Virus record (IMG/VR): IMGVR_UViG_3300001336_000005
Coordinates: 7,034-71,033 of that record
Source: a virus
Lineage: Duplodnaviria; Caudoviricetes
Strand: one strand, 5' to 3'
DNA: 64,000 bases
Part shown: positions 12,966 to 43,500 of the stretch, one piece after another
How the letters are laid out: every line of letters begins with the position of its first letter
Position numbering within the stretch: position 1 is the stretch's first letter
Position numbers and translations under genes: made by a program
Notes under the pieces: model-generated
The model's input: the letters and a program-made list of their open reading frames with translations, nothing else
Databases searched by the model: none
What the model was told of the DNA's origin: nothing

Positions 12966-13232
12966 TTACATAAACTCTTCGTCGTTATAAGTATCTTTAC
13001 TTTCTTTATTTGCTTTAAGTAGTTCCTTTTTATTTGTTAATATAGGTTCTTTTCTATTTTCTATAAATTCGGGAACTACAATCTCTTCTTCATACGGAAA
13101 AATATCCTCCTTTTTAAATTTTGAAGTAGTATTTTTATATCTACATATATAATATTCACCATCATATAAATAAGGAACTATTACAACTCCCTCTTTATCT
13201 CTGTATTTATTAAAAATTTTAATGTATTTCAT
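12966..13232 (-). CDS. Hypothetical protein
   Basis: 88-aa ORF coupled to the DnaE fragment 4 stop. Confidence 0.55.
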   Translation of the reverse strand: MKYIKIFNKYRDKEGVVIVPYLYDGEYYICRYKNTTSKFKKEDIFPYEEEIVVPEFIENRKEPILTNKKELLKANKESKDTYNDEEFM

Positions 13233-14476
13233 TATATTACCTTTTTTACAAAACTCTTCATTACTTTTTCACTTCTAGTCCACTCTTTTCTTCCAAACAT
13301 AACTTGACCTTCGTCATTTTTATATAAATTTAAAAGAAAAATAGAACCATTCTTAAAAGTATCTTTTAAAACTCCCCAAAAATTTTGAAATATTGGAATT
13401 TTTACCTCTACTCCAGTTGTGTCTTCTATTGTAATAAAAGCCATTTCATTTCCATTTCTATCGTTAAATATTCTCATTCCAGTTATATATACTGGAATTT
13501 TCATAGACGACTCAGTAATTTCATAAAAAGATTCTTTTAAAATTCCTTTAGAATAATAATCACTAAAAACTTTTAATAATTTTTCTGGAAAAGCTGAGGT
13601 AAAAAAATTAACTCCGAAATATTTTTTTTCATTTTCTCTTTTTTCTTCTATAGAAAATTTTAATCCAGGAATTTTTTCAATATCACTAATTGCTTCATTC
13701 CAAATTATTTCTAATTTTTCATCTACCTTAATACTTTTTTTGTTTTCATTGTATTTTTCAAAAGCAGATAATAATTGTTTTGTATTTAGATTTTTTTCTA
13801 TTTCTTCAAAAGCTCCAGCGTATATTAAAGCGCTTATAACTTTTTTATTTATAACTTTTCCATTTTCTTTGGCTACTCTTAAAAAATCAAAAAAACTATT
13901 ATATGGTCTATTTTCTATAATAGCATTAACTGCTTTTTCTCCAACTTGCTTAATATTACTTAATCCATAATATATTTTATTTCCTTTTGGAGATACATTT
14001 TCTTTTGAAGTATTAACTTCTGGGGGAACTATTTTAAATCCTTTCTTTGCCGTTGTTCTTAAAACGCCTAAAAGATTATTTTCTTTTTCTGTTTCATATT
14101 GTATTATAGAAGAGTAAAAATATTTTCTAAAATAGTGTGTCATGTATAAGGACATTGCAGCAATATAAGTATAAGCTACAGCATGTGATTTATTAAATGA
14201 ATAGGAACTCATTTGAAGCATATCATTGGCAATAGACTTTGCTTCTCTATGAGTTAAACCATGTTTAACTGCTTCCACCTCAAATCTTTCAATAATACTA
14301 TCCCAAGAGTCCAAATCTTCTTTTTTCTTATCTGCTTTGCCTAATTTTTTCATTAAGCCTCTAACCATATTACAATTATGAACCAATACATTATTTGCGA
14401 AAAAATTGTGATTATCTTCTATTTCTAAATCGTAAACAATGTCTGATTTAATTTTTTTTATTTTTTTGATCTTCAT
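13232..14476 (-). CDS. dnaE: DnaE fragment 4: C-half of a split intein (34 aa) plus distal fingers, HhH and OB-fold
   Basis: Start ATG 14476 with GGAG SD. IntC is MKIKKIKKIKSDIVYDLEIEDNHNFFANNVLVHN|C, followed by YSFNKSHAVAY, PPEVNTS, GLSNIKQVG, ALIYAGAF, MAFITIED. Confidence 0.95.
   Translation of the reverse strand: MKIKKIKKIKSDIVYDLEIEDNHNFFANNVLVHNCNMVRGLMKKLGKADKKKEDLDSWDSIIERFEVEAVKHGLTHREAKSIANDMLQMSSYSFNKSHAVAYTYIAAMSLYMTHYFRKYFYSSIIQYETEKENNLLGVLRTTAKKGFKIVPPEVNTSKENVSPKGNKIYYGLSNIKQVGEKAVNAIIENRPYNSFFDFLRVAKENGKVINKKVISALIYAGAFEEIEKNLNTKQLLSAFEKYNENKKSIKVDEKLEIIWNEAISDIEKIPGLKFSIEEKRENEKKYFGVNFFTSAFPEKLLKVFSDYYSKGILKESFYEITESSMKIPVYITGMRIFNDRNGNEMAFITIEDTTGVEVKIPIFQNFWGVLKDTFKNGSIFLLNLYKNDEGQVMFGRKEWTRSEKVMKSFVKKVI
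14375..14476 (-). mobile_element. Split intein C-fragment (IntC)
   Basis: Block F VYDLEIEDNHNF and block G LVHN, with Cys at +1 (14372-14374). Confidence 0.95.
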
Positions 14477-15343
14477 TTCTTCTCCAATGATAGCCACCGC
14501 AAGTTTTCAATTTACCATCGCAACATCTACCTATATCCCCAGAAACCTTGTAACCTATATCTCTCGCCGCTTCTGATTGAGAATCGTATATTTTTCCTGT
14601 TTCCACGCAGATTACTTTTTTATAATTGGTTGGTTTTTTTAATCTTTTTTTATTATAAAACTCATTTTTTTTATAATCAATCAACGGATTGAATTTTTCC
14701 CAATGATACCCATTTGCTGTTTTCGTTTTGCCCAGAACGGCATCGCAAATAGTAGACACTGATCTGTTGTTATCCATAGCAGCTTCTTTATATGAAAAAT
14801 AACCCTTGGCGTCCTCTATTCTTATTATTAAATAATTTATTTTATTATAATACTGATTCCTGGAATAATCGACACCTTCTTCAAAATCGTCCCAGTGATA
14901 ATTATTAGATAAAATATTTTTATCATTAATAGATTTTTTTATACACCAACCATCTTTCAAATTATTACCGATAGCCGCTTTTTTTTGAGAGTTGTAAACC
15001 TTTCCAGTTTCCAGACAAATAACTTTTTTTCTTGCTGTTCTATGAACCCATTTTTTAATTTTTCATACAACTTTGAGTTTATTTTAAACTCTATTTTGTT
15101 TTTAGTGTTATTCATTAACCAAAAAGCAAATAGCATTTCTTTATTATTATATATTTTCCATAATAAATAATGAGCAAGATAATGTTCTCTATAAGAGAGT
15201 AAAACTAAATTCTCCTCATCGTCTCCTCCACCCATACTTTTTGGTTTTATATGATGTAGTTCATAGATTTCTTCATTGTTTCTTTTTCTATTTAAAGATT
15301 TAACATACCCAATATATTTTCTATAATTCATTTCATAATCCAT
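14448..15343 (-). mobile_element. Free-standing HNH homing endonuclease with three NUMOD1-like repeats, read in two frames (15343-14957 and 14960-14448) offset by -1
   Basis: HHIKPKSMGG.D.EENLV.L..REHYLAH in the first frame. The -1 frame continues KKVICLETGKVYNSQKKAA...YHW, then two more KVIC.ETG..Y.S..EAA...GYHW-type repeats. Confidence 0.85.
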
Positions 15344-15364
15344 CGTATTCTCCTGTATTTATCT

Positions 15365-16042
15365 TTACGATGGATTATGAAAAAGCTCATCTTCATCTGT
15401 TAACTCTTCCGCTTTCACCCATCCTCTATTTTGTGTGAAGATTTTATGATCAGGCGTGCATTTTAAGGTTTCTCCATTTTCAAACTCTATTTCTATTAAA
15501 GTTCTTTCTCCATTATTTAAATATCTTTTTATTTCTTTCCATTCTTTTTCCTTACTTTCTTCGTTATAAGAAAGAACTTTTACATCAAGATTGTTTTCAA
15601 CTATTTCTTTTATTGAAACATTACCAATATTAGTCGTTATTTTTTCATCTCCTTGAATACACTCTTCCAAAGAAAATCCACCAATTTTATTAAAAATTGA
15701 CATTACGCTTTCTTGATATAATATTACTCCGTTTGTGTCTTTTGTGATTTTATAAATAGGTTCTGGTATGTTATGAGTTTCACTATCTCTATTTTTTACA
15801 TATTCTGGAGCAAAACTACTAGTACCAGGTCTTGCAAAGGCATTACATGCTACAATTTCATCAAAATTTTTTGGTTTAATCATATTTACCATAATCTTTG
15901 CAGTATATCCTGTAAGCTGAAAGATTCCAATAGAATCTGGATCATTTACTTCTTTATATAAATTTTCATCATTTAAATCTATATCATAAATAAAATCTAT
16001 TAATTCTTTTTTAGATATTTTTTTTATAATTTTAATTGCCAT
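15365..16042 (-). CDS. dnaE: DnaE fragment 3: proximal fingers (127 aa) plus N-half of a split intein (98 aa)
   Basis: GIFQL, NAFARPG, TNGVILYQESVM, GGFSLEE|CIQGDEKI...CTPDHKIFT..GWVKAEEL. Confidence 0.95.
   Translation of the reverse strand: MAIKIIKKISKKELIDFIYDIDLNDENLYKEVNDPDSIGIFQLTGYTAKIMVNMIKPKNFDEIVACNAFARPGTSSFAPEYVKNRDSETHNIPEPIYKITKDTNGVILYQESVMSIFNKIGGFSLEECIQGDEKITTNIGNVSIKEIVENNLDVKVLSYNEESKEKEWKEIKRYLNNGERTLIEIEFENGETLKCTPDHKIFTQNRGWVKAEELTDEDELFHNPS
15368..15661 (-). mobile_element. Split intein N-fragment (IntN)
   Basis: Cys1 at 15659-15661, block B TPDH, acidic C-terminal tail, then a stop codon. Confidence 0.95.
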
Positions 16043-16446
16043 TATATAAACTCTTTTCCTGTTTCTTCTTTATATAAAGTAAGTAATTCTGGATTATATA
16101 TATTTCCAAATGTTTTTTTAGCCCATTCGTTTTTTTCTTCATCCATACTAATAAATCTTGCTATTCTATTTCTTCTATTTTCTTTTCTAAATATTTCACC
16201 GATTTTAAAAGTTGAATTTTGCCAAATGAATGACATTAAATTAAACTCTGGATTTATTTTTTCCTGTATCACTTTTTTCCATAAATTTTCAAGACATTCT
16301 TGAATCATATCATTTCTTTTTTCTTCATCATAAACATTATACTTTCTTATTAATAAAAAATTAGTTATCTCTCTTGCTTCTTTAAAGAAAAAATCATAAT
16401 CTTTTTTTTTAAATTTTTCTGATAAAACTTGTTTGTCTATATTCAT
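16042..16446 (-). CDS. T4 gp55-like truncated sigma factor (candidate late sigma)
   Basis: Sigma region-2 pattern IT.FL...Y....DMIQECLE.LWK......NP..N..S.I.Q...F.I..I.RKE.RR resembles gp55. No region 4. Confidence 0.65.
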   Translation of the reverse strand: MNIDKQVLSEKFKKKDYDFFFKEAREITNFLLIRKYNVYDEEKRNDMIQECLENLWKKVIQEKINPEFNLMSFIWQNSTFKIGEIFRKENRRNRIARFISMDEEKNEWAKKTFGNIYNPELLTLYKEETGKEFI

Positions 16447-16661
16447 TATCTACCTTCATTTTTAGGTTTACCATCATGTATTCCTAAATAATAAACTACA
16501 TCTCCATAAATTTTTGATAGCTTGCCTATAGCATTTGAAATTCTAACTATGCTATGACCTTCCCCTTTAACTGATTCTTCTTCAATTTTATTAATATGAA
16601 CTTCCATTTCTTTTATTTTATTTGTAATTAAATCATCAATCTCTTCGTTTCGTAAACCCAT
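16446..16661 (-). CDS. Hypothetical protein
   Basis: 71-aa ORF coupled by a TAATG overlap. Confidence 0.55.
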   Translation of the reverse strand: MGLRNEEIDDLITNKIKEMEVHINKIEEESVKGEGHSIVRISNAIGKLSKIYGDVVYYLGIHDGKPKNEGR

Positions 16662-16681
16662 TTTTTTCTCCTAAATTTTAT

Positions 16682-17554
16682 CTAAACAACTTCTTTTATT
16701 TTTTCTAAATAAGATTCTGGAACAGCTTTTATAATTCCATCCTCTTCTATTAAATAAATTTCTTCATCAATCATTTCTACTGCGTTTTTAATAACATCTA
16801 AAGTTGATATTCCGAGTATATCAAATTTAATAACTCCTAATTCGTCTAAATCAGTTTTTTGTCCGCTTTCTTGATAACCTGTTACTAATATGCCTTGAAC
16901 TCTTTCTACAGGAACATAATTATAAACTGGCTCTGGTAAAATACAAATTCCACCTGCATGTTTTCCTGCCTGTCTAGGACGATCTATAAATTTAGGAACT
17001 AAATCAAATATTTCTTTCTTGCTTTCATAAAATTTATATAAATTATAATCAGAAATTTTTAAAGAATCTAAGTTTTCCTCCCAAGTTAATTCTCTATCCA
17101 ATGCCTTAGAAAATTCATTAGATTTTTCATAAGGTATTTTATAAAATCTAAGAATATCTCTTACAGCAGATTTCATACCTAATGTATTTTGAGTTCCTAC
17201 ATTAATAACACAATCTTCTCCATATTTTTCTTTTAAATATTCTAAAATAAATTCTCTACCACCACCTTGAAAATCAACATCTACATCAATTCCTCCAGAA
17301 GCTCCTTTGGAAACTTGAACCATATCTATCTTTTCATTTGTAATTTTTTCTGTAAATTCTAAAACATAAGGTAAAATGTATTGAGTTTGTATTTTTTCTT
17401 TATTATCAACAAATTCTTGATAAATATCTCTTCCATTATTGTAAAATCTTTCAGCAGTTTTTAGTTCAATTAAAAACTGCTGTTTCTGCTTTTCATTGAG
17501 TTCTTTTAATCTTTTTTTTGTTTTACATGTATTTATTAACTCTTGATATGTCAT
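16682..17554 (-). CDS. dnaE: DnaE fragment 2: catalytic palm and thumb
   Basis: IDVDVDF..GRE.ILEYL..KYG, GT..TLGMKSAVRD, KHAGG, KFDILG. All three catalytic Asp equivalents are present. Confidence 0.93.
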   Translation of the reverse strand: MTYQELINTCKTKKRLKELNEKQKQQFLIELKTAERFYNNGRDIYQEFVDNKEKIQTQYILPYVLEFTEKITNEKIDMVQVSKGASGGIDVDVDFQGGGREFILEYLKEKYGEDCVINVGTQNTLGMKSAVRDILRFYKIPYEKSNEFSKALDRELTWEENLDSLKISDYNLYKFYESKKEIFDLVPKFIDRPRQAGKHAGGICILPEPVYNYVPVERVQGILVTGYQESGQKTDLDELGVIKFDILGISTLDVIKNAVEMIDEEIYLIEEDGIIKAVPESYLEKIKEVV

Positions 17555-17560
17555 ATAATA

Positions 17561-17589
17561 ATTATATATTTAAAAATTATTTTTGTCAA
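17561..17589 (-). promoter_or_regulatory. Sigma70 promoter for DnaE fragment 2 (leaderless spacing)
   Basis: TTGACA-17-TATAAT, with the ATG 6 nt downstream and no SD. Confidence 0.85.
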
Positions 17590-17603
17590 CTTATTTTTAT
17601 GAT

Positions 17604-17630
17604 AAAAAAAAGCGGCTATAAAAGCCGCTT
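17604..17630 (-). terminator. Rho-independent terminator downstream of nrdJ
   Basis: AAGCGGCT/AGCCGCTT stem with a T-run on the minus strand. Confidence 0.85.
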
Positions 17631-17667
17631 AAAATTGATAAGGTTTGTAAGCAACGCTTACATTAAT

Positions 17668-17696
17668 ATTATACATTTTTTTATAATTTTTGTCAA
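17668..17696 (-). promoter_or_regulatory. Sigma70 promoter followed after ~60 nt by a terminator
   Basis: TTGACA-17-TATAAT. Confidence 0.8.
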
Positions 17697-17702
17697 ATTA
17701 TT

Positions 17703-20700
17703 TTATCCGCACTTAGAGTTTCCACAAGATAAGCAAGTTAAGCATCCTTCTCTAAATTCAAGATTATCGCTTCCACATTCAGGACAAGTTGCTCCTATTG
17801 CCTTTTCTCCATCTTTAATATATTTCTTCAATACTCTGCCCACAGCTTTCATAAAAGTCCCAAATTTAGGAGCCTTATTCCATTGTTTTACTATATCTTG
17901 CATTGGAACTCCGTTTTTTAATGCTAAAGATGTCATTCTACCAAGAGTTCCCCATTCATCATCAAACATAGAAGCTAAATCTTTTAATATAAATTCGCTT
18001 CTTTTACCTTCTATATGTAAATCATATAAATTAACTCCACTAACTTCTCTTCTAATTATTCTTCCTTTTTTTGCGTGTTTCACATTAATTATCTGATCTG
18101 GATCTTCTGTTATAAACAATTCATATGGTTCATCTGTTTCATCATCCAATCCAACAAGGGCAATAATTCTTTCTTTATCAACTTGCATTTCATGAATATC
18201 ACATTCTAAAATTTCTGGTCTTTTTTTATTTGTATTTTTTATTTTTTTCTTTCCAGTACTTAAAATTCCTTCCATTCCAGCACCTTCGTGAAAACTTGTT
18301 ACACCTTTTAGTCCTTTTTTCCAAGCATACATAAAAATATCTTTGTATTCTTCAAGTGTTGTCTCATAAGGAATATTTATTGTTTTACTAATACTATGAT
18401 CTATATATTTTTGAAAAGCAGCTTGAACGTCTATGCTTGCTTTTATTGGAATATCATGCGAAGTCACAACATAATCGTGAAGAGGTTTATCATTTCCAAA
18501 AAAATCACAATAATCTAAATAACCATTATCATATATAGTTTCATCTTTTTTTGTATCATTATCTTGAATTATTGTTCTGTCATATTGAAGACTAAAAATG
18601 GGTTCTATACCGGAACTACAATTTTGTCCTATTGAAAAAGAAACCGTTCCTGTAGGCGCTATTGTATTTAACCCTATATTTCTTAATCCATAATCTTGAA
18701 TTTCTTTTTGCGTTTGTTCTGATAATGTTGTTATAAAACCATACTTACCGATGTTTTCATCAAATGCAGGAAAAGAACCTTTTTCTTTTGCTAAATAGGC
18801 AGAAGTAATATAGCTATTTTCAGCTAAATTTTTACCAACCTTCTCTACAAAATCTATAGATTCTTTTGAGCCGTATTTAATACCAAGTTTTAATAAAGCA
18901 TCGCCAAGACCAGTAATTCCTAAACCAATTCTTCTCCAAGCTTTTGAAACAATCTCTATTTTTTCTAATGGATAACTTGCTCTATCTAAAACATTATCTA
19001 AAAATCTTACCCCAATACTTACCATTTCAGAGAATTTAGTATAATCAAAAAGTGCTTTATCTGTAAAAGCATTTTTAATTAAAGTTGACAAATTTATTGA
19101 CCCTAGACAACACAAAGAGTATGGGGGCATAACTATCTCCCCACAATTTGCATTATTTACCATAACTAATTTCGTATTGCCAGTTTTTGTTTCTGTATTA
19201 GATACAATTGTATTATAATTATGCACTTCATCAACTGTTCCATTATACACATCTTCTTTACCAATTATTCTAATAGATACTACTTTATGATTGTAAACCA
19301 ATCCATTTTTAATAAGTTCTTCTGCTTTATTAATTGAATATTCTTCATTCTTCAGTTTCTTTGTACTTATTTCAACTCCAAACCTATTTAATATTTCTCT
19401 ATTTAAGAACCTTTGATAACTTTTTTCTCTGACGGTTCTAAAATCTTTCATATGTGAAGTAATCAATAGATTATTTAAATCTTCCCCAATAGGTATTTTT
19501 TTATTTTCACTTACAAATTTAATGAAAGAGATAATAAAAGTTTCTTTTTTGCTATTCATTCTATCTTTTAGCGTTTTAGAAGATTTTTCCTTTCTTTCCT
19601 TTGAGGTAAATTCTACTCCACATTTTGAAGAACAATAAGATTGCTCTCTTTTATAATATTTAACTTTAAATGTCTTGCCGCAATTTTCACATATTTTTTC
19701 AGCATAAATACACCCATCAATAAAATATAAATCCAAATCACTTTCTTTTAATAGATTAAGATATCTATTATATTCTCTTGCTTCTTGTGGTTTATTATAA
19801 ATTTTATATCCATTCTCTATATTTATGGACTCTATGATGTTTTTTGCAGTTGTATTTCTATTTTTAAAATAAGGAGGTATATTGTTTTCAATACAAACAT
19901 TTTCATAATCTTTCCAAGTAATAATAGATTTATTTTCTTCAGCCCATGTTTTTAATTTAATTATTAAATCTGTTATAGAAAAATCAACATACCTTCCGTT
20001 ATCTGCTCCTTTGTGGGTAGCAAAATTTCTTTTCCATTCATCTGACATTTTATGATAAGGATTGTTTTCGCCAATCATCAGCCTACTATGAAGACTATCA
20101 TGTTCTTCTTTGGAAAGAGATGATAAATTACTTATAGAATTATCCAAGGAATCAAAATTTTTATGATGTATTACGTTTCTTTTTGTTATTTCTCCATTAA
20201 GTTCCTCAAATATAATTCGGTGCTCTGCCCTATTTTTATGTCCATCATTATAAAACCAATATTCAGTTTTTTCTTTTTCTCCTCCAAACATTTCCTTATA
20301 AGAGGTTTTCCATTTCGTATCTATCCATAAAGAATCTCCAATCTTTAACTCATCTGCTCTTACAAAAGATTTATCTTTTGTAAAAATTTTATGATTAGAA
20401 GTGCATTTTATAATAGAGCCATCATCTAGGGTTATTTCATAGATTTCTTTATTATATCCTGTAATTCTTGGATTTCTCATTACTCTTACAATAGTTTTTC
20501 CATTTTTATCTTTAGCAAAAACAGGAACGTCTTTTCCTTCTTCTACTAATTGCTTAAATGGAACACTTACCCTTCCATCAGCTACTGCTACTAATGTTCC
20601 TCCTACAACACATGGGTTGCATCTATCCACTCTAAATGCATGATGTCCATTATTATATTTTTCTATAGTATCAAGAAATAAAGCTCCTGGTTCATTATAC

Positions 20701-21413
20701 CACCAAGCATTCTTAGACAAAATATTATACATTTCTCTTGCTTTTATTATTCGCTCTGTTTTTTTTCCATTAAATTCAAATTCCCAGTCTTCATCGTTTT
20801 CCACAGCTTTCATAAACTTATCAGTAATACCAACACTAATATTAAACTGAGTTAATGTATTATTTTCATTTCCTTTTTTTGCTGTTATAAAATCAATTAC
20901 GTCTGGATGTGTGTCATTTAAAATTGCTATACTTGCAGCTCTTCTTTGCCCTCCCACTCTAATTTGTTTAGAAGCAGCATCAAAGACTTCCAAAAAAGAT
21001 AAGGGACCACTAGATTCTCCACCTTTACTAATTGGCGAACCAGATGGTCTTAATTTACTAACATTAAAACCAACACCTCCACCAACTGATTGGATTGTCA
21101 TATATTCTTTTATTGAATTAGTAATACCATTCATACTATCTTCAATATCAATAGTAAAACAGTTATTGTAATTCTTCATTGGTGAATTTGGCCTAGCATT
21201 TGCTAAAATTCTACCACCTGGAATAAAATATCCATTAACAATAGCATCGTAAAACTTTTCTTCCCATTTTTTTTGCTTTTCCGGTGTTTTTTCTGCAAGT
21301 GATATTTCTTTAGCCACGCCTTTAAATACTTCTTCAGGCGTAGTTTCTCCGTGTAAACAGTATTTTCTGTTAAAAATCTCTTCGCTAATTTTCTGTTTAA
21401 ATTTAAAACTCAC
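17703..21413 (-). CDS. nrdJ: Class II (B12-dependent) ribonucleotide reductase with an intein
   Basis: PGGRIL, NCF, GGGVGFN.S.LRP, GGQRRAA, NP|C|GEI, RRIGLG.TGL, TIAPTGT, SSGIEP; C-terminal TSCPD-like domain and Cys4 ribbon typical of NrdJ. Confidence 0.9.
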   Translation of the reverse strand: MSFKFKQKISEEIFNRKYCLHGETTPEEVFKGVAKEISLAEKTPEKQKKWEEKFYDAIVNGYFIPGGRILANARPNSPMKNYNNCFTIDIEDSMNGITNSIKEYMTIQSVGGGVGFNVSKLRPSGSPISKGGESSGPLSFLEVFDAASKQIRVGGQRRAASIAILNDTHPDVIDFITAKKGNENNTLTQFNISVGITDKFMKAVENDEDWEFEFNGKKTERIIKAREMYNILSKNAWWYNEPGALFLDTIEKYNNGHHAFRVDRCNPCVVGGTLVAVADGRVSVPFKQLVEEGKDVPVFAKDKNGKTIVRVMRNPRITGYNKEIYEITLDDGSIIKCTSNHKIFTKDKSFVRADELKIGDSLWIDTKWKTSYKEMFGGEKEKTEYWFYNDGHKNRAEHRIIFEELNGEITKRNVIHHKNFDSLDNSISNLSSLSKEEHDSLHSRLMIGENNPYHKMSDEWKRNFATHKGADNGRYVDFSITDLIIKLKTWAEENKSIITWKDYENVCIENNIPPYFKNRNTTAKNIIESINIENGYKIYNKPQEAREYNRYLNLLKESDLDLYFIDGCIYAEKICENCGKTFKVKYYKREQSYCSSKCGVEFTSKERKEKSSKTLKDRMNSKKETFIISFIKFVSENKKIPIGEDLNNLLITSHMKDFRTVREKSYQRFLNREILNRFGVEISTKKLKNEEYSINKAEELIKNGLVYNHKVVSIRIIGKEDVYNGTVDEVHNYNTIVSNTETKTGNTKLVMVNNANCGEIVMPPYSLCCLGSINLSTLIKNAFTDKALFDYTKFSEMVSIGVRFLDNVLDRASYPLEKIEIVSKAWRRIGLGITGLGDALLKLGIKYGSKESIDFVEKVGKNLAENSYITSAYLAKEKGSFPAFDENIGKYGFITTLSEQTQKEIQDYGLRNIGLNTIAPTGTVSFSIGQNCSSGIEPIFSLQYDRTIIQDNDTKKDETIYDNGYLDYCDFFGNDKPLHDYVVTSHDIPIKASIDVQAAFQKYIDHSISKTINIPYETTLEEYKDIFMYAWKKGLKGVTSFHEGAGMEGILSTGKKKIKNTNKKRPEILECDIHEMQVDKERIIALVGLDDETDEPYELFITEDPDQIINVKHAKKGRIIRREVSGVNLYDLHIEGKRSEFILKDLASMFDDEWGTLGRMTSLALKNGVPMQDIVKQWNKAPKFGTFMKAVGRVLKKYIKDGEKAIGATCPECGSDNLEFREGCLTCLSCGNSKCG
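19146..20612 (-). mobile_element. Contiguous 489-aa intein with an HNH endonuclease, inserted just before the RNR radical Cys
   Basis: CVVGGTLVAVADG start, CTSNHKIF block B, EHR...IHHKNFD.LDN...NL HNH, VYNGTVDEVHNY block F, ends NAN|CGE. Confidence 0.92.
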
Positions 21414-21422
21414 TTCTTCTCC

Positions 21423-21653
21423 TTATAAGTTCTTTTTAGCTAATTTTTGCTCCTCTAAAGCTATTTTTACTATTTTTTTTAGCTCTTTAGATAAAACAGA
21501 GCTTATTTCTCTTGACATTTTTTCTGTTTCAGCTTTTAGAGTTTCATAGTCTTCTATTTCTTTTTCTATTTCAAAAGAAGCATTTATATCAACTGCTTCA
21601 TATTGCCTTGGAAATAATTTAAATCCCAAAGTATTTCCTAATTTTATTTTCAT
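21423..21653 (-). CDS. Hypothetical protein
   Basis: 76-aa ORF with GGAG SD. Confidence 0.6.
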   Translation of the reverse strand: MKIKLGNTLGFKLFPRQYEAVDINASFEIEKEIEDYETLKAETEKMSREISSVLSKELKKIVKIALEEQKLAKKNL

Positions 21654-21701
21654 ATTCTCTCCTTAATTTTATAAATATTTTTTTCCAAGCAAGTAATAAT
21701 T

Positions 21702-22982
21702 TTACAAAAAATATTGAAATACATAATCTGGACTTCTTGAATCAGATAAAAATCTTTCAAAAAGTAATCCAAATCTTAATGGATCTATTGTAGTTATTCC
21801 TAGAGCATATAACACTAAACTACCAGCTCCAGAACCTCTTCCAGCTCCAGCCATTAGTCCTTCTTTTTTAGTAGCTCTAAAAATATCTTCAAGTATTAAT
21901 ACATAACTTGCCATTCCTTTTCTTAGCAACACTTCAAGTTCTTTTTCCAATCTATCTCTATATTCTTTATCTACTTCTTCTAAAGTTTTCTTATTTAATT
22001 TTTTTATTAAACCTTCTCTTGCTAATTTTATTAAATTTTTACTATCATTTTCTGTTACTGTTGGAAGAATCATTTTTGTTCTTTCTGGAATTCTAACATT
22101 GCATCTTTTAGAAATTTCATAAGCATTATTACAAAGATCTTCTATATATTCATCAGAATATCCATAATTCCACTTCTTATTAAAAATTTTGTAATCATCA
22201 ATTGTATGATAAAAAAGATGTTTTCCTTCAAGTTCAAATTTAATATTATCATAAGTAGAGCCGTCTTGTATACCTAATGAAACTGTTTGTAACCAATCAT
22301 CACCATCATTTAAATAATGAACATCACCAGTTAAAACTTTTGTAATTCCATATTTATCTGCTAAACTTTCCATAAAACTATTTATAGTTTTTTGTCCTTC
22401 GATTGCTCCTTGAACTTTTTCTTCGCTAATAATTTCATTTAACTGCAATTCTGTATAAAAATTATTTTTTCCAAACTTTTCTATGAACTTATTATATAAG
22501 ACTTCTGCCTCTTCTTCTTTCCCCTCTCTAAATAATCTAGAAAAAGGAGAAGCCATACATGCTGTTCCAACAATCAGTCCTTCAGAATGAGCAAATAATT
22601 CTTCAAAAGTTATGTGATTTCTATAATAAAAATGATCTGTATCATTCATAGATATATAATTTAATTTTAATAAATTTTTATACCCTATTTGATTTTCTGC
22701 TAATAATATGATATGATTATTAGGAATTCTTTGTCTTTTTCCTTTTTCATCTAATATCATTAGTTTATCATTAATATACATTTCAACACCAAATACAGGA
22801 ATTAAATCAAATTTATCACAAGCTTTTTGATGGTCATAAAATCCACTTAATTTACCGTGGTCTGTTAGTGCTAAATGAGTATGTCCTAGTTCTTTTGCTT
22901 TTTTTGCGTAATCCTCAGAAGATGCTACCGCATCTAAACGACTTCCAGCATTAGCGTGAATATGTAATTGTGTAAAATTCAT
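21702..22982 (-). CDS. dnaE: DnaE fragment 1: PHP domain plus N-part of the palm
   Basis: LHIH..GSRLD, ALTDHG, GVEMY, HIILLAEN.IGYKNL, TGDVHY, GRGSGAGSLV.YALGIT.IDP...LLFERFL..RSPD, then a stop. Confidence 0.95.
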   Translation of the reverse strand: MNFTQLHIHANAGSRLDAVASSEDYAKKAKELGHTHLALTDHGKLSGFYDHQKACDKFDLIPVFGVEMYINDKLMILDEKGKRQRIPNNHIILLAENQIGYKNLLKLNYISMNDTDHFYYRNHITFEELFAHSEGLIVGTACMASPFSRLFREGKEEEAEVLYNKFIEKFGKNNFYTELQLNEIISEEKVQGAIEGQKTINSFMESLADKYGITKVLTGDVHYLNDGDDWLQTVSLGIQDGSTYDNIKFELEGKHLFYHTIDDYKIFNKKWNYGYSDEYIEDLCNNAYEISKRCNVRIPERTKMILPTVTENDSKNLIKLAREGLIKKLNKKTLEEVDKEYRDRLEKELEVLLRKGMASYVLILEDIFRATKKEGLMAGAGRGSGAGSLVLYALGITTIDPLRFGLLFERFLSDSRSPDYVFQYFL

Positions 22983-23078: not shown

Positions 23079-24731
23079 ATGATTGATTTTAAAGAATATA
23101 TAATGCTTAATGAAAGCATAATTTATCCAAATTGGAATTATGGAGTTAGTACTAAAAACTTCTTAGAAAATAAAGGAAATAGAGCAAAAGCTTTAGCATA
23201 CTTAGAAAGCTTAGCAAGAGATAAAAAAGAAGGAAAAGAAATACTTGATAAATTTCAAAATGATTATTATAAAATTTATAAAGGAAATCTTGATGCCACT
23301 AAAAAACTTATTAATGAAAAAAGCAAGGAAATTTTAGACATAGCATTATCTTTAAAAATTTTAGGAATAGCTCTGATTTTAGCTAAAAAAGGCGAAGAAC
23401 ATGTTAAAACAGTAGGGCAAATAGAAGGTGGTCCCTCTACAACATTAACAAAAGAAAGAATAGAAAAGGTTATTTTTGAGGTATTTGAAACCAACAAAGG
23501 AACAATAACAAAAAGAAAAAACATGGGGAATATATGGTTTACTCCTTATGAACCATCAAAAAAAGATGACAAATCCCCAACCACTAGGGTATTCAATCAA
23601 ATAAGAAAATCTAGAATGAATATGAATGTTTCTGAAAAAGAGGGAAATATTAATGTTGTTTTTACTAAAGATGGCAAAGTAATAAAAACTCAAGAAACTA
23701 AATTTTTTAATAATGATGGAAAACCTATTAATATTTTTGAAAATCCAAACGCCTTTGAAGAAAATAAAAACAAAGACTTAATGTTTAAAGATAAAGATGG
23801 AAATAATATAAAGGTTTTTAAAGAAAATCCTTTAATAAACAAATCACAAAACAAAGAGCAAGAAAAAGAAAAAGAAGAAACTCCTAAAGAGCAAGGGCAA
23901 GAGCAAGAAAAAGAAAAAGAAAAAGAAGAAACTCCTAAAGAGCAAGAAAAAGAAAAAGAAGAAACTCCTAAAGAGCAAGAAAAAACTTCAGATGATATGA
24001 AATTAGCAAGGGAGTCAAGACCAAAAGACATAAACATACCTGTTAGAAAAAATGAATTTGGCAATATTAATGAATTATCAGAAAATGTTAAAGAAGGTAT
24101 AAATAAAGCAACAAATATTAAAAAACAATTTTATGAAATGGCTAATGAATATTTAAAAATAGCTTTTGATAAGTTATTTATATCAAAATTTAATACCTAT
24201 GAAAAAGCTGAAGGAGCACTACCTGAAGTAAAAGCTTATTCAATAAAAGAAATAAATCCTATAAAATTAAAAGTTATAAATATCATAGATAAATTTGAAA
24301 GAATATTTACAGATAGAGTTAATAAAATTATAAAACAAGAAAAAAACTTTACTAAATATGCTCAACCTACTGAAAAAGCAAAAGGCAATGCAAATATAAA
24401 TATAGAAATAAATAATTTAAATAGTGATTTAGCTGTTATGAAAAATGAATTATATAAAGCAACTAAATTAAGTATAGCAGAAACTAAGGGATTTAAGAAA
24501 ATAAGAACAGAAAGAAAAAAAGAAGCTAAAGAAACAGCTAAAAAAGCAAAAATGTCTTCTAGCAGAAGAGCTGCTTATGAAAAAAGAATAGCAAAAAGAG
24601 AAGATAGAAAAGATATTTCTGGAGCTAAAGCTGAACAAACTAAAGAAAAAATAGAAACCTACGCTGCGGAAAAAATAAGTCCCAAATTAAATATTATTCA
24701 ACAAAGATTGCAAAAACTAAAAAGAAATTAA
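23079..24731 (+). CDS. Large K/E-rich protein, putative internal head protein
   Basis: Starts MIDFKEYIMLNES; late motif at 23039-23048; internal KEQEKEKEETP repeats. Confidence 0.6.
   Translation: MIDFKEYIMLNESIIYPNWNYGVSTKNFLENKGNRAKALAYLESLARDKKEGKEILDKFQNDYYKIYKGNLDATKKLINEKSKEILDIALSLKILGIALILAKKGEEHVKTVGQIEGGPSTTLTKERIEKVIFEVFETNKGTITKRKNMGNIWFTPYEPSKKDDKSPTTRVFNQIRKSRMNMNVSEKEGNINVVFTKDGKVIKTQETKFFNNDGKPINIFENPNAFEENKNKDLMFKDKDGNNIKVFKENPLINKSQNKEQEKEKEETPKEQGQEQEKEKEKEETPKEQEKEKEETPKEQEKTSDDMKLARESRPKDINIPVRKNEFGNINELSENVKEGINKATNIKKQFYEMANEYLKIAFDKLFISKFNTYEKAEGALPEVKAYSIKEINPIKLKVINIIDKFERIFTDRVNKIIKQEKNFTKYAQPTEKAKGNANINIEINNLNSDLAVMKNELYKATKLSIAETKGFKKIRTERKKEAKETAKKAKMSSSRRAAYEKRIAKREDRKDISGAKAEQTKEKIETYAAEKISPKLNIIQQRLQKLKRN
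23853..23985 (+). repeat. In-frame low-complexity tandem repeat (KEQEKEKEETP, about 3 copies)
   Basis: Recurring aaagagcaagaaaaagaaaaagaagaaactcct units. Confidence 0.85.
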
Positions 24732-38617: not shown

Positions 38618-40504
38618 ATGGCAAGTTATGAAGACTATGATAGCTGGTATATAAAAGATGTATTAGCTAATGAGATACAGCAAAAATTAAAATATAAATT
38701 TTATGATTATGAAGATTTTTTTGCTGTAACTAATGGTACTAAAAAAATTATTCCAAACTCACCATTTATATCTGTTCAGTTTAAGGTTTTTGATACTAAT
38801 GAAGTAGCAAGAGGAAATACTGAAGGATATTGGATAGATATAGCTACTAGAAAAATGAATAATTTTAATAATAGTGGTGAATATGTTAAAACATTTGGTA
38901 GTACTAATTTAGTTGAAGATAATTATTTTATAAGCTTAACGGTTGAAGATAACGGAGGTTTTAGACAATGTTCGCTAACACTACAAGACTCAACCGAAAA
39001 AAATCTTGAAAATATTATTTTAAACTCAATAATTTCTTCAAATATAATATCAAAACCAGTAAATCAAGATATAATAATGAATTTTCCTCCAGAAGAAAAT
39101 TTTAGAATAAGATTTGGTTATGGTAATGAGTCAGAGGGAGATGATGTTATAAATGAACCAAATTTACAAGGAGAAGATTTTGTAAAAAGAACAGAAACCC
39201 TTCAAAAACCCGTTTGTGTTTCTCCTTGGTTATATTTTAAAATACAAAATTTTAATACAGATTTAACTGAAAATGGAATTGTTTTTAATATACAAGCTTA
39301 TGAATTATCTCATCTTATTCTTGATAATTTAAAAATTTTACAAAATAATAATAAAATAGAAGAAAAGCCAATTGATACTTTTCATTTATTAGCTAAAAAA
39401 TTAAGCAAAGCATCTGATGGGTATATAAGGCTTATAACTAATAAAGGACAATTTTATACTCCAGAAGGAAACTTAATAACTTCTAAAAATTTTAATAAAA
39501 AAAGTAATTTTCCAGATGAAATTACTTTCTCATATGATAATAATGAATATAATCATAAAATTAATCTTTTTACCATGTCAGAAGAAGATGAGGCAGATAA
39601 TGGAGAAGACATTGCTAAATATTTAAGTGTTAGTAATTTATTAGATGAATATTGTAAACAAGTACTTCCAAGATTTTATTATGAAGAAAACTATCAAAAA
39701 GTAGAAAATCAAGATGTTGTTTATATTTTAAATCCATTTGATATAAATCCTAATTCCTGGAAAAATAAAATTAATCCTCTTTATAATCATGAAGAAGATT
39801 TTGAGTTTATTAGTAAAGTAAATGAATTTAAAGAAAAAAATTTAGTGTCAAATGATTATATCTGGAGATATAAAGAAATTCCTGGCGAAGGAATTTATAT
39901 ATATTTTGAATATAAAGATGAATTTAAAGAAAATAAAAGTAAAGAAATAAAAATAAGAAGATATGAATATAGAAATAGTTTAAATAATATAATAAAAAGC
40001 GCAAATCTAACTTTTAACAATCAATTTGGATTTTTAAATTTTAATGTGGCTATAGATACTAATGGAAAAAATAGAGTTTTTAAGTTTAATAAAAGTGGTA
40101 ATGAAATTTCTTTAAATACAAATCCAAAAGAAATTTTTATAAATGAAGAAGATGAAGGTTTTGGTTTTATTTCTACAGCAAGAACAAATCTTTTACCAAC
40201 GCCAAGTGGTAATTTAGAAGGAAATATTTTTTCAAAAGCATTGGCTAGAAAAGTAGCAGAACAGGTAAATAAATTTATTTATCAAGGAACTATAGAATTA
40301 ATGGGAGATCCTTTTTATTTATTTGATGAAAGTTTATCTCCTGTACAATATATGATATATTTAAATGTTTATAAAAAATCTACAGATGGAGAAAAAAACA
40401 CTTTAAGTAATATATCTGGATTTTATTTTATAAAAAAGATAACACATAACATAACAGGTAGTGGATATACTACTAATTTAGAAGTACAGAGGATTTTTGA
40501 ATAA
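38618..40504 (+). CDS. Baseplate hub protein (gp27/Mu gp44/gpD-like)
   Basis: C-terminal G.IEL.GDP...SGFYFIKKITHNITGSGYTTNLEV; immediately precedes the tape measure gene. Confidence 0.65.
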   Translation: MASYEDYDSWYIKDVLANEIQQKLKYKFYDYEDFFAVTNGTKKIIPNSPFISVQFKVFDTNEVARGNTEGYWIDIATRKMNNFNNSGEYVKTFGSTNLVEDNYFISLTVEDNGGFRQCSLTLQDSTEKNLENIILNSIISSNIISKPVNQDIIMNFPPEENFRIRFGYGNESEGDDVINEPNLQGEDFVKRTETLQKPVCVSPWLYFKIQNFNTDLTENGIVFNIQAYELSHLILDNLKILQNNNKIEEKPIDTFHLLAKKLSKASDGYIRLITNKGQFYTPEGNLITSKNFNKKSNFPDEITFSYDNNEYNHKINLFTMSEEDEADNGEDIAKYLSVSNLLDEYCKQVLPRFYYEENYQKVENQDVVYILNPFDINPNSWKNKINPLYNHEEDFEFISKVNEFKEKNLVSNDYIWRYKEIPGEGIYIYFEYKDEFKENKSKEIKIRRYEYRNSLNNIIKSANLTFNNQFGFLNFNVAIDTNGKNRVFKFNKSGNEISLNTNPKEIFINEEDEGFGFISTARTNLLPTPSGNLEGNIFSKALARKVAEQVNKFIYQGTIELMGDPFYLFDESLSPVQYMIYLNVYKKSTDGEKNTLSNISGFYFIKKITHNITGSGYTTNLEVQRIFE

Positions 40505-43500
40505 TGAATTCACTAGATATGTCTTTTGGGATTAACAAAGGTTTAGAATCTCACTTAAACACAACAGCAAAAAAATTATATTCAATAGATGACTCTACGC
40601 AAAAAATAAATAAAAATTTTGAAAAAACTAATAATCAAACTAAAAATTTAAGAAGTATAATTGGTGGTTTATCTAAACCTTTAGTTGATGCCGCTAAAAG
40701 ACTTTTCTCTTTAAATGTTTCAGCACAAATATTTACTTTAGGAAAATCTTTTTTTGAACTTAATAAAGAAATAAAAAGTTTAGCAGATGAAACTGGTTAT
40801 GGCACTAAAAATACAGTGGAATTTATAGATAAAATATTTAAAATACAGACTGTCTCTGGTGTGAGCACATCAGCTATAAAAGAACTAAACAAAGAATTAT
40901 TATTAAATAGAATAAATTTAAAAGAAGGAGCTTTGACTAGCTTAGCAATATTTATGGATTATACAGGAGCTTCAGCTGAGGCTACTGGTAAATTTACAGC
41001 AAGTTTAATTCAATTAGGAGCAACAGAAAAAGAAATAAATGGAGTCTTTAGATCAATAGCTAGTGTAAGAACAGAACTTGGATTAACAACAGAGGAAATA
41101 ACATCTTTATATTCAGCATTACCAAAAATGATAGGAGCGTTAGGTAAAACAGATATTAACATGCAAAAGGTTTCTAAAAACATGAGTATCATGATTTCAT
41201 CTTTTAAATCCGTTGGGATAGCAGCAGAAGAAACTATTGGAATTTTTGAAAAATTATTTAATCCAGATACTATTCTTGAAAATAGTTTATTACTTAATAA
41301 ACTTGGAATTAGTTTAAATGATGCTATGTCTGGTAAAGGCTTAGAAAATATAAATATATATCAAGATAAATTTATAGAATTAGCTAAAACTATAAATAAT
41401 ATACCTAATAAGTTTGCCGCTAATGAAATGGCAAAACAATATGGTATTACTTTAGAGCAAGCAAATAAATTAGCTAATATGACAACAAAGCAAATAAATA
41501 ATGAAAAAGAAATATTAGATATTAGAATGAAAGTTAACACTATGTTTCAAAAAGTTCAAGAATTAGCAAATAAAACTTTAGGAAATATTGCTTCTAAAAT
41601 TATAAATTTATTTAAAAATAGTGGTATTGGAAAATTTTTTGAAGAAAATACTAAAAAATTAAGTGACTCATTAACTAAAATAAATTTAGAAGGAATAGGG
41701 GATGGTATAAAAAAACAATTAAAAGCAAGCATTCTTGCTTTTTCCGTTATGGCTATTCCAATTATAATTTTTTTAGGTAAAAGAATAAAAAAAGTTTTTT
41801 CTAAGTCCTTTTCTTTATTAACAAATACTTTTGCTGAAAGCTTAAATAATGTATTTGAAAAATCTCATAAAAGAGAAATGATTTTAAAAGAGAAAAGATT
41901 AAAAACAGAATTAAAACACAGAAAAGAAATTTTAAAAAACAATCCTTCTGTTTCTTCTTTACCAACAAAAGACTTTTCTGAAGATTTAAATAATGTATTT
42001 GAAAAATCTCATAAAAGAGAAATGACTTTAAAAGAGAAAAGATTAGAAACAGAATTAAAACACAGAAAAGAAATATTTAAAAACAATCCTTCTTTTTCTT
42101 TATTGACAAATACTTTTGATGAAGGTTTGAGCGATGTATTTGAAAAATCTCACAGAAAAGAGATGACTTTAAAGGAAAAAAGATTAGAAACAGAAATAAA
42201 ACACAGAAAAGAAATATTAAAAAATAATCCTCTTTATTTAGCAGAAAAGGAAAGAGCAGAAAGTATAGCTAAAAAATATGAAGATGCTAGAGGTCCTATA
42301 GGTAGATTTGTTAAATCTTTAGCTAAAGTAAACTCTGAAATGCTTGATTTAAAAAGATATATGGAAGATCCTATTGATTTAAGAAAACATGAAAAAATAC
42401 TTAAAGTTATGCAAGATATAACCTTAAATAATAAACATAGAATTGAACAAAATATTGAAATAAAAAAACAACTAGAAAATCAAAGAAGCGAAGTTGTAGA
42501 TAGAATACAAGAACTTGAAAAAATAGCTCACGAAGAAGGACTTTCTTATTTTAGAACAATTGAATTAAATAAATTACAAAAAGTTCAGGCAAAACTAAAG
42601 ATTTCTATTGGAAGAGAACAAAATAAAATTGAAAAAATAGAAATAAACCAAAAAAGCGAAATGGAAAAATTATCTAATAGGATGAGCAAGCAACAATTAT
42701 TTGATTTAACCAAACGTCTTGAAAAAACAAAAGAAATTCAAGAAGCAGAAAAAGCGGGATTTATAGCTAGAGCTAAAGAATATAAAGATGAAAGAAAAGC
42801 TATGGAGAGTGTTTTTTCTTTTAATGAGCAAGAATTAGATTCTCAAAGAGAAATGATTAAAATTTTAGAAGAAAAAGGTAAATATTTAACACCAGAAGAT
42901 AGTTTAAAAATAGTAAACGCTAAAAGAAGAGAGAATGAAATATTAAAACAAAATTCAGAGCTAGAAAAACAAATAGAATTAAATAAAGTAAGTCAATTAG
43001 ATATTCAAGATAGAATACGTGAAAAAAGTTTAGAAACCAAAAAAATAAATGAACAAATAATTGACTATACTAAAAAAATAAATAATTATTATGAGAAACA
43101 AATTAAAGCTGGTTCTAAATTTAATGGAATATTAGAAAGAGGAAAAAATATGTTCGTTAATATTGGAACTGCAATAAAAGATAGCGTTGTTTCAAGATGG
43201 AGTAAATTTACAACTAATGTAAAAGAAACTTTTAAAGACGTTGGAAGTTTAAGTAGATCAATTGCTAAAGCAGGATTAACTTTTTTAAGACAACAAGATG
43301 ATAAAAAAAGAAGCGCACTAAGAGGAGCTGGAACAGTTGCAGTTAAAATAGGTTCTGGCTTAACTAAAGCTATAGGAAAAGTTGCTGGTATAACTGGTAT
43401 TTTAATGGCAGTATTTGGTAAGAGTGCAGCTATGCAAAGATTATTTGCTACAGTACAAGCTAAGTTAGAATCAGTTTTTGTAAAATTAGAACCAGCTATG

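Follow-up and report, generated by a model that had tools for sequence, protein, structure and literature searches.

Four reading frames covering one DnaE polymerase

The window analysed here is a 64-kb stretch (positions 7,034-71,033) of the 71-kb viral contig recorded in IMG/VR as IMGVR_UViG_3300001336_000005, and positions given below are those of the window unless another contig is named. Four open reading frames (ORFs) on its minus strand, which we call F1 to F4, cover one family C (DnaE) DNA polymerase in order. F1 (21702-22982; 426 amino acids, aa) carries the PHP domain and the palm's N-terminal half with the GS motif, which binds deoxynucleoside triphosphates (dNTPs), and it ends in a clade-specific tail of 10 aa (aa 417-426; 21705-21734). 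F2 (16682-17554; 290 aa) starts with an add-on of 89 aa, a helical bundle (aa 1-64) followed by a linker (17288-17554). Its core (aa 90-248; 16811-17287) holds D90 and D92 (in DVDVDF), D245 (in KFDILG), the thumb and the remaining palm, and a second add-on, an acidic beta-hairpin and a helix, forms its C-terminal tail (aa 249-290 and the stop codon; 16682-16810). F3 (15365-16042) is made up of an N-extein (aa 1-128; 15659-16042), in which a basic head of ~10 aa precedes the proximal fingers, and of an N-intein. F4 (13232-14476/14497) consists of a C-intein and a C-extein of 380 aa (13232-14374), which begins with Cys+1 and contains the distal fingers with the FNKSH motif, an HhH domain and an OB-like C-terminus.

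That the four frames tile one polymerase in this order had been proposed in a sequence-only reading of the window, which placed PHP and GS in F1, DVDVDF and KFDILG in F2, the proximal fingers in F3 and FNKSH, HhH and OB in F4; Pfam, alignments to solved structures (PDB) and PHROG 405 all agree with it. In Pfam, F1 matches the PHP domain (PF02811, E 9.5e-33) and positions 3-99 of the DNA_pol3_alpha profile, residues 90-248 of F2 match positions 103-260 of that same profile, F3 matches finger-domain positions 8-137 (PF17657, E 1.9e-27) ahead of its N-intein, and F4 has FNKSH and HHH_6 (PF14579, E 4.8e-21) after its C-intein. For F4 the assignment held for FNKSH and HhH, and its OB fold was detected only weakly, with an E value of 0.0097 that lies below the cut-off. 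Aligned with the solved Taq Pol III alpha, F1 corresponds to residues 6-458, the GS motif included, and the alignment restarts with F2 at residue 463, exactly at the catalytic-aspartate strand. On PHROG 405, a full-length phage DnaE of 1190 positions, F1 covers 42-440, F2 444-618, F3 612-736 and F4 738-1082, in order and overlapping by only a few positions. The exteins add up to 426 + 290 + 128 + 380 = 1224 aa, close to the earlier estimate of about 1223 aa, in which F3 had been counted with 127 residues rather than 128.

The alignment to the Taq and E. coli enzymes, which the sequence-only reading had put forward as a check, matches the catalytic residues as well as the order of the pieces: D90, D92 and D245 of F2 fall on the catalytic residues of both, and across 37 F2 homologues D90, D92, K243 and D245 do not vary. 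Likewise invariant, in 13 F1 homologues, are the GS motif and the nine PHP metal ligands (H7, H9, D17, H42, E67, H90, C142, D220 and H222). Given what is known of PHP-proofreading DnaE1 enzymes, this intact set of ligands suggests that F1 also supplies proofreading. The GS motif and the catalytic aspartates are encoded on two different chains, F1 and F2, and the catalytic subunit is not one polypeptide, the pieces being separate ORFs with start signals of their own and two of their joints being free of inteins.

Joints without inteins and the sequences that border them

Only one of the three junctions had been described as repaired by an intein, and we likewise found no intein motif at the other two, between F1 and F2 (joint 1) and between F2 and F3 (joint 2). 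Pfam gives no HINT, Intein or PT-HINT match at the end of F1, at either end of F2 or at the start of F3, and a Cys/Ser/Thr plus HN signature is absent from both joints. Both are bordered, on each side, by extra sequence that is conserved and specific to the clade of related phages described below. At joint 1 these additions are the 10-aa aromatic tail of F1 and the 89-aa N-terminal domain of F2, a domain that is not in canonical DnaE and is conserved in the clade; at joint 2 they are the acidic beta-hairpin and helix at the end of F2 and a short basic strand at the start of F3. An AlphaFold2 model predicts aa 1-64 of F2 to be a helical bundle and not a beta-rich HINT fold (predicted local distance difference test, pLDDT, ~85-94), and the joint-2 additions, at ~36 aa together, are too short for a HINT fold. 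We considered a dead intein or half-HINT clasp at these joints and rejected it on account of the missing HINT match, the helical F2 domain and the shortness of the joint-2 additions. Another candidate that was set aside is that the F2 N-terminal domain is a degenerate duplicate of the C-terminal segment of F1, for which hhalign returned a probability of 1.8% over 21 columns. By eye, the F1 tail (21705-21734; consensus ...RSPDxVYDYF) resembles the strand ...PDIDxDF that follows FERFL in P0102, a single-chain DnaE discussed below; judged by its sequence, the tail looks as if it were a degenerate copy of the catalytic strand left behind at the gene break.

Recurrence of the break points in related phages

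A search of 5.8 billion proteins for homologues of F2 returned 93 metagenomic clusters of stand-alone F2-like proteins. Full length was found in 86 of them (283-374 aa, 45-55% identity), which cover 89-100% of F2, N-terminal extension included; the other seven are core-only proteins of ~200 aa. Gene contexts were read in two assemblies of 203 and 255 kb (L005 and L006), in 14 IMG/VR contigs and in a close relative of the window, L021. The survey of related phages for shared break points, which had been suggested along with the original reading, showed that 16 related contigs have the identical two break points, with differing genes in between. Their layout is an F1 of 412-434 aa, an F2 of ~290 aa and, mostly, one uninterrupted F3F4 gene of 496-533 aa. 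The gap between F1 and F2 measures 2 nt in L006, ~2.8 kb in L005 and 4.1 kb in the window. In L005 a guanylate kinase, an ATP-dependent ligase and small ORFs of 191 and 80 aa lie between the pieces, and in L006 an IMPDH gene lies between F2 and F3F4. G001 (208 kb, 88% complete) has its genes in the order F1-orf71-orf134-F3F4, F2 being found ~85 kb off on the opposite strand. The shared break points, the varying neighbours and the scatter in G001 together exclude misassembly, frameshift error and splicing in cis.

All three pieces are present in every relative with enough sequence, and in some the division goes further. In L016, L017 and L019 the F2 N-terminal domain is an ORF of its own (~99 aa) and the F2 core begins at the catalytic strand, which makes four intein-less chains. 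Further split or contiguous inteins occur at other sites in L007, L013/L018, L019 and L020. The separate-gene arrangement is clade-wide and not peculiar to this phage. A megablast search of GenBank phages with the DnaE region gave no DNA-level match, and tblastn with F2 found no isolate phage covering at least 80% of it; the split-DnaE clade is therefore metagenome-only in the collections searched.

Fused and single-chain relatives

In one subclade (L013/L018, P0098-P0101) F1 and F2 form a single ORF of 708-714 aa, and the fused protein keeps the F1 tail and the F2 N-terminal domain as an internal insert of ~105 aa. At the opposite extreme, P0102 is a single-chain DnaE of 1090 aa, 40-50% identical to each of the pieces, that is without exactly four additions: the F1 tail, the F2 N-terminal domain, the F2 hairpin and the F3 head. 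Nearest to it, at 67% identity, is P0103 (607 aa), in which F1 and the F2 core are contiguous with no insert and which stops at joint 2 with a hairpin-like tail. A two-piece form is seen at L023:8001-10713 (GCA_043956575.1): a 607-aa protein combines F1 with the F2 core and has no insert, and what follows it is not F3F4 but an overlapping, unrelated ORF of 303 aa or more.

A quick-mode maximum likelihood tree of the F1 and F2 regions, insert columns included, makes P0102 and P0103 the sister group of all forms that bear the insert (Shimodaira-Hasegawa-like approximate likelihood ratio test, SH-aLRT, 99-100) and nests the fused F1-F2 forms as a clade among the three-piece forms (node support 88). 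Because the fused forms are nested in this way, the sequences favour a secondary origin of the F1-F2 fusion, from adjacent genes. For the natural fusion P0099, AlphaFold2 gave a model with a pLDDT of 90 and a predicted template modelling score (pTM) of 0.86, in which the insert has a pLDDT of 71-96 (ten-residue block means); the composite alignment used for modelling fused proteins included five natural fusions. The model superposes on Pol III alpha structures with a template modelling (TM) score of 0.70 and an E value of 8e-42. The fusion is 'Rosetta stone' evidence for F1 and F2 being parts of one body. The structural match of P0099 is expected for halves of a known fold, and alone it is no proof that separate chains bind.

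Selection on the pieces and the search for another polymerase

Ratios of non-synonymous to synonymous substitution (dN/dS) were obtained by comparing the window with L021, which is 93-95% identical to it in F1 and F2. They are 0.08 for F1, 0.05 for the whole of F2, 0.035 for the F3 extein and 0.12 for the F4 extein. Within F2 the core stands at 0.02, the N-terminal domain at 0.07 and the tail at 0.14. Neighbouring replication genes range from 0.05 to 0.12, and the exteins are at or below the primase, FEN and SbcCD. All exteins are under purifying selection. A dN/dS near 1, named in the sequence-only reading as the mark of decaying pieces, was not what the exteins gave, with their values of 0.04-0.12.

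G000-G003, which comprise this phage's contig and three relatives at 54-88% completeness, gave no match to a family A (PF00476) or a family B (PF00136) polymerase. G001, G002 and G003 each have one copy per DnaE region and no intact DnaE; a split intein divides the second palm region of G002. This DnaE is the only DNA polymerase detected in these relatives. A candidate for a second DnaE in the window, a weak six-frame match to PF07733 in an ORF of 1201 aa (40504-44109), was rejected: neither Pfam nor PHROG reproduced it, and the ORF lies in the tail and baseplate module.

The F3/F4 split intein and its homing endonuclease

At the third junction, the N-half of a split intein (15365-15658; 97 aa, F3 aa 129-225, and the stop codon) contains Cys1 and TPDH, and the C-half (14375-14476; 34 aa, F4 aa 1-34) ends in ...VHN and has its own Shine-Dalgarno sequence, with an ATG at 14476. 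The set of motifs is complete, from Cys1 and TPDH to the terminal HN followed by Cys+1, and the spliced seam corresponds to the uninterrupted F3F4 sequence of eight relatives, with Cys replacing Thr at +1. These sequence features argue for the earlier view that F3 and F4 are joined by a split intein. Across the clade this polymerase has several natural split inteins, of which this is one.

Between the intein halves, as in the fractured-gene layout, lie the HNH (14957-15343) and NUMOD-like (14448-14960) ORFs of a free-standing homing endonuclease that occupies two frames on the minus strand (14448-15343). In L021 the homing endonuclease is a single ORF of 294 aa (L021:12211-13095), and the window copy is one base short in an A-run (14957-15060); programmed -1 frameshifting accounts for the frame break no better than a simple indel or an error of homopolymer assembly. 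The insertion points of the split inteins are two codons apart, after ...SLEE in the window and after ...SLEETN in L021 (15650-15665 and 14365-14380 compared with L021:11504-12187 and 13085-14323). The two N-intein halves are only 54% identical although the phages are 93-95% identical in F1 and F2, and the N-intein has a dN/dS of 0.63. The shifted sites, the low identity and the high dN/dS together suggest that one intein replaced another or that neighbouring sites were invaded independently.

Genes and signals between the pieces

The genes between the pieces are all on the minus strand. Just 3' of F1, between F1 and F2, there is a strongly constrained 76-aa ORF (21423-21653; dN/dS 0.04) that is kept in some relatives at other positions. 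It is followed by the class II ribonucleotide reductase (RNR) large-subunit gene (17703-21413; barrel-domain match), which had correctly been placed between F1 and F2 as nrdJ and in which a contiguous intein, bearing an HNH endonuclease domain, is inserted. The RNR gene of L021 also has the class II RNR insertion-domain family, and LAGLIDADG-type homing-endonuclease domains stand in it (L021:6769-9861) instead of the HNH intein of the window.

Between F2 and F3 lie a 71-aa ORF (16446-16661) and, downstream of it, a 134-aa ORF (16042-16446) that directly precedes F3 and whose stop codon overlaps the F3 start. A homologue of the 134-aa ORF is found just upstream of F3F4 wherever the stretch that was fetched spans both (L005-L022), G001 included, and the 71-aa ORF was detected ahead of it in nine of these contigs. 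The label of a gp55-like sigma factor, given to the 134-aa ORF in the sequence-only reading, was not confirmed, since Pfam and PHROG gave no match and it was only a cluster of language-model neighbours that carried Sigma70_r2. The ORF might encode a minimal late sigma factor or an accessory protein of the polymerase.

The spacer between nrdJ and F2 (17561-17696, minus strand) contains two promoters with an intrinsic terminator between them, in keeping with the proposal that F2 has its own promoter and a terminator upstream. Both promoters are perfect (12/12) matches to the sigma-70 consensus TTGACA-17-TATAAT (17696-17668 and 17589-17561), the only two such promoters in the 10-kb region, and the terminator (17630-17610), a strong one, lies ~40 nt past the first. 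From this promoter-terminator-promoter array a very short RNA may arise, or the array may serve as an insulator. Since only 6 nt separate the end of the second -10 box from the ATG of F2 and no Shine-Dalgarno sequence is present, the F2 mRNA is probably leaderless. AGGAG-type ribosome-binding sites precede F1 (a strong one), F4 and most neighbouring genes, and every piece has its own start codon plus a ribosome-binding or promoter signal.

More widely, the window has a G+C content of ~25% and is divided between a T4-like replication and recombination module, in a minus-strand block from ~3.6 to 36 kb, and a plus-strand half with tail and baseplate proteins. The module encodes a DnaB-type helicase, a Toprim primase, an NAD-dependent ligase, a 5'-3' exonuclease and SbcC/SbcD, and the same block also holds a RecA/UvsX-like protein, an SF2 helicase and a T4 baseplate protein. 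Between F1 and SbcC, a plus-strand ORF of 550 aa (23079-24731) has an acidic and lysine-rich low-complexity repeat region and is conserved in L021 at 82% identity; it had no family match in the Pfam and PHROG scans. An Rfam scan of the window found no intron and no other family, and a tRNA scan found no tRNA. An alternative genetic code is unneeded, all three stop codons being used and ORFs being dense under table 11.

A proposed three-chain replicative polymerase and its alternatives

We infer trans-splicing, complex formation, docking of the additions and polymerase activity from sequence, and the reading that we prefer is that F1, F2 and a trans-spliced F3-F4 make up a replicative polymerase of three proteins held together at two non-covalent joints. 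We put its probability at roughly 0.8. A three-chain enzyme of F1, F2 and spliced F3-F4 had been proposed from the window, and it is the explanation that the comparative data support best. In such an enzyme, F3 and F4 would be joined by protein trans-splicing into one fingers-HhH-OB chain, the equivalent of the single F3F4 gene of most relatives, and F1, F2 and F3-F4 would associate non-covalently into a body like that of Pol III alpha. The active site would be assembled from three chains, with the dNTP-binding motif coming from F1, the metal ligands from F2 and the fingers from F3-F4, and the PHP domain of F1 would probably be an active proofreading nuclease. The glue would probably be provided at joint 1 by the F1 tail with the 89-aa helical domain of F2, and at joint 2 by the acidic hairpin of F2 together with the basic head of F3. 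A more specific idea, which we offer tentatively and think doubtful, is that the additions are docking modules of non-intein origin that evolved to hold together a replicase of three to four chains, with F2, which has all the catalytic aspartates, its own promoter and a probably leaderless mRNA, as the limiting subunit that switches the enzyme on.

Several observations weigh against a three-chain replicase. Of the ten codons of the F1 tail, four are changed relative to L021, and the tail is too short for selection on it to be gauged. No sliding clamp (PF02768, PF02916) was detected in G000-G003, and F4 has no clear clamp-binding motif. The window contig is only ~30% complete by CheckV, so that a second polymerase may lie in its unseen part; an intact polymerase elsewhere, which the sequence-only reading had named, together with decay of the pieces, as an outcome that would refute it, was found in none of the relatives that are 54-88% complete.

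Among the alternatives, the one that survives best, though we regard it as improbable, is that the pieces have separate functions, F1 for example as a stand-alone PHP nuclease and F2 and F3F4 with other partners. The pieces can indeed sit far apart and on different strands, and F2 has consensus promoters of its own. However, F2 has the metal ligands of a polymerase without the GS motif and the fingers, so that no single piece has a full active site. The co-occurrence of the three pieces in every relative with enough sequence also speaks against separate roles, as does the nested subclade in which F1 and F2 are fused and fold, in the model, as one Pol III alpha-like body.

Somewhat less probable still is that the intein-less joints are made covalent after all, either by RNA trans-splicing introns or by an unrecognised protein ligation, for instance through a degenerate intein within the additions. 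Conserved extra sequence on both sides of both joints would fit such a process, and the basic F3 head resembles the start of the true C-intein. Yet no Rfam intron is present in the window, F1 and F2 are next to each other in L006 (2 nt apart), and F2 of G001 is 85 kb away on the other strand. At the protein level, the joints have no HINT match and no Cys/Ser/Thr plus HN signature, the F2 N-terminal domain is helical and the ~36 aa at joint 2 are too few for HINT, and the fused subclade retains the added sequence inside its protein instead of having it removed.

Least probable of all, and largely refuted already, is the view that the pieces are what decay has left of a formerly intact dnaE, in a phage replicated by another phage polymerase or by that of the host, for although the contig is incomplete and the homing endonuclease beside the pieces is frameshifted, extein dN/dS is 0.04-0.12, the catalytic residues are all invariant across the clade, 16 contigs retain these pieces at 45-55% identity, neither PolA, PolB nor a second DnaE was found in relatives 80-88% complete, and the PF07733 match at 40504-44109 was not reproduced. 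The three-chain polymerase and these three alternatives take up nearly the whole of the probability as we judge it, and a small remainder is left for explanations that we have not thought of.

If the three-chain reading is right, a widespread clade of large uncultured phages replicates with a catalytic subunit in three or four chains. It would offer a natural system in which a Pol-beta-like polymerase active site is assembled from parts, one in which two ways of stabilising gene fission, docking modules and inteins, could be compared within one enzyme, and one in which fission and re-fusion alternate in evolution. There would also be a consequence for annotation, since phages of this clade seem to be without an intact polymerase because the pieces are labelled 'hypothetical' or 'partial DnaE'.

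Comparison with known systems

In every solved Pol III alpha or PolC chain that was matched, the whole catalytic core is on one polypeptide. In the open-access papers and preprints searched, we saw no full-length DnaE described that is made of three or four chains without inteins, and a phage DnaE spread over several genes goes unmentioned in two surveys of DNA polymerases, which cover dsDNA viruses and bacterial genomes respectively. The sequence-only reading knew of no described example; for a shorter form, a two-piece minimal Pol III, a proposal already exists. For group 2.2 jumbo phages, Iyer et al. (2021, Viruses 13:63, PMC7824862) predicted a minimal Pol III alpha whose NTP-binding and Mg-binding subdomains are encoded by two distant genes; it is limited to the nucleotidyltransferase and template-binding modules, without PHP, HhH and OB, and a family B polymerase, regarded as the main replicase, is present beside it. 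The system described here is similar in being a phage family C module that is divided between GS and Mg subdomains and is predicted from sequence to reconstitute one enzyme. It differs in being a full-length DnaE, from PHP to OB, in three or four chains with clade-specific additions at the breaks, and in that PolB (PF00136) was not found in G000-G003.

Fractured genes, in which a split intein is accompanied by a free-standing homing endonuclease, were described by Dassa et al. (2009, NAR 37:2560, PMC2677866) and include three metagenomic DnaE loci. The F3/F4 junction has the same order of N-intein, endonuclease gene and C-intein. The surroundings are alike as well: the gp41 helicase, IMPDH, NrdJ, ligase and 5'-3' exonuclease of those loci resemble the repertoire of this clade, in which the same IMPDH, NrdJ, ligase and helicase genes that were found fractured are present. 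In contrast to those genes, which are repaired by splicing, the F1/F2 and F2/F3 joints have no intein, and the endonuclease is of the HNH/NUMOD type, whereas those named in PMC2677866 are GIY-YIG and Vsr-like. The DnaE of cyanobacteria (Wu, Hu and Liu 1998, as presented in PMC2677866) is a replicative DnaE on separate genes too. In that account it is in two pieces with a split intein just before FNKSH and has no non-covalent joints; here the intein site is elsewhere and non-covalent joints are proposed.

The closest parallels for chains that come together without splicing are found in other enzymes. NrdA of the T4-like phage Aeh1 is split by a homing endonuclease, and its chains reassemble without splicing, according to the account in PMC2677866; split phage polymerases of families A and B are also known. 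Like these, the DnaE of this clade is a replication enzyme in separately translated chains, often with mobile endonuclease genes nearby. Unlike these, which are usually in two pieces, it is cut through the Pol-beta-like nucleotidyltransferase fold itself, so that the dNTP-binding and the metal-binding halves are apart, and the cuts are bordered by dedicated additions.

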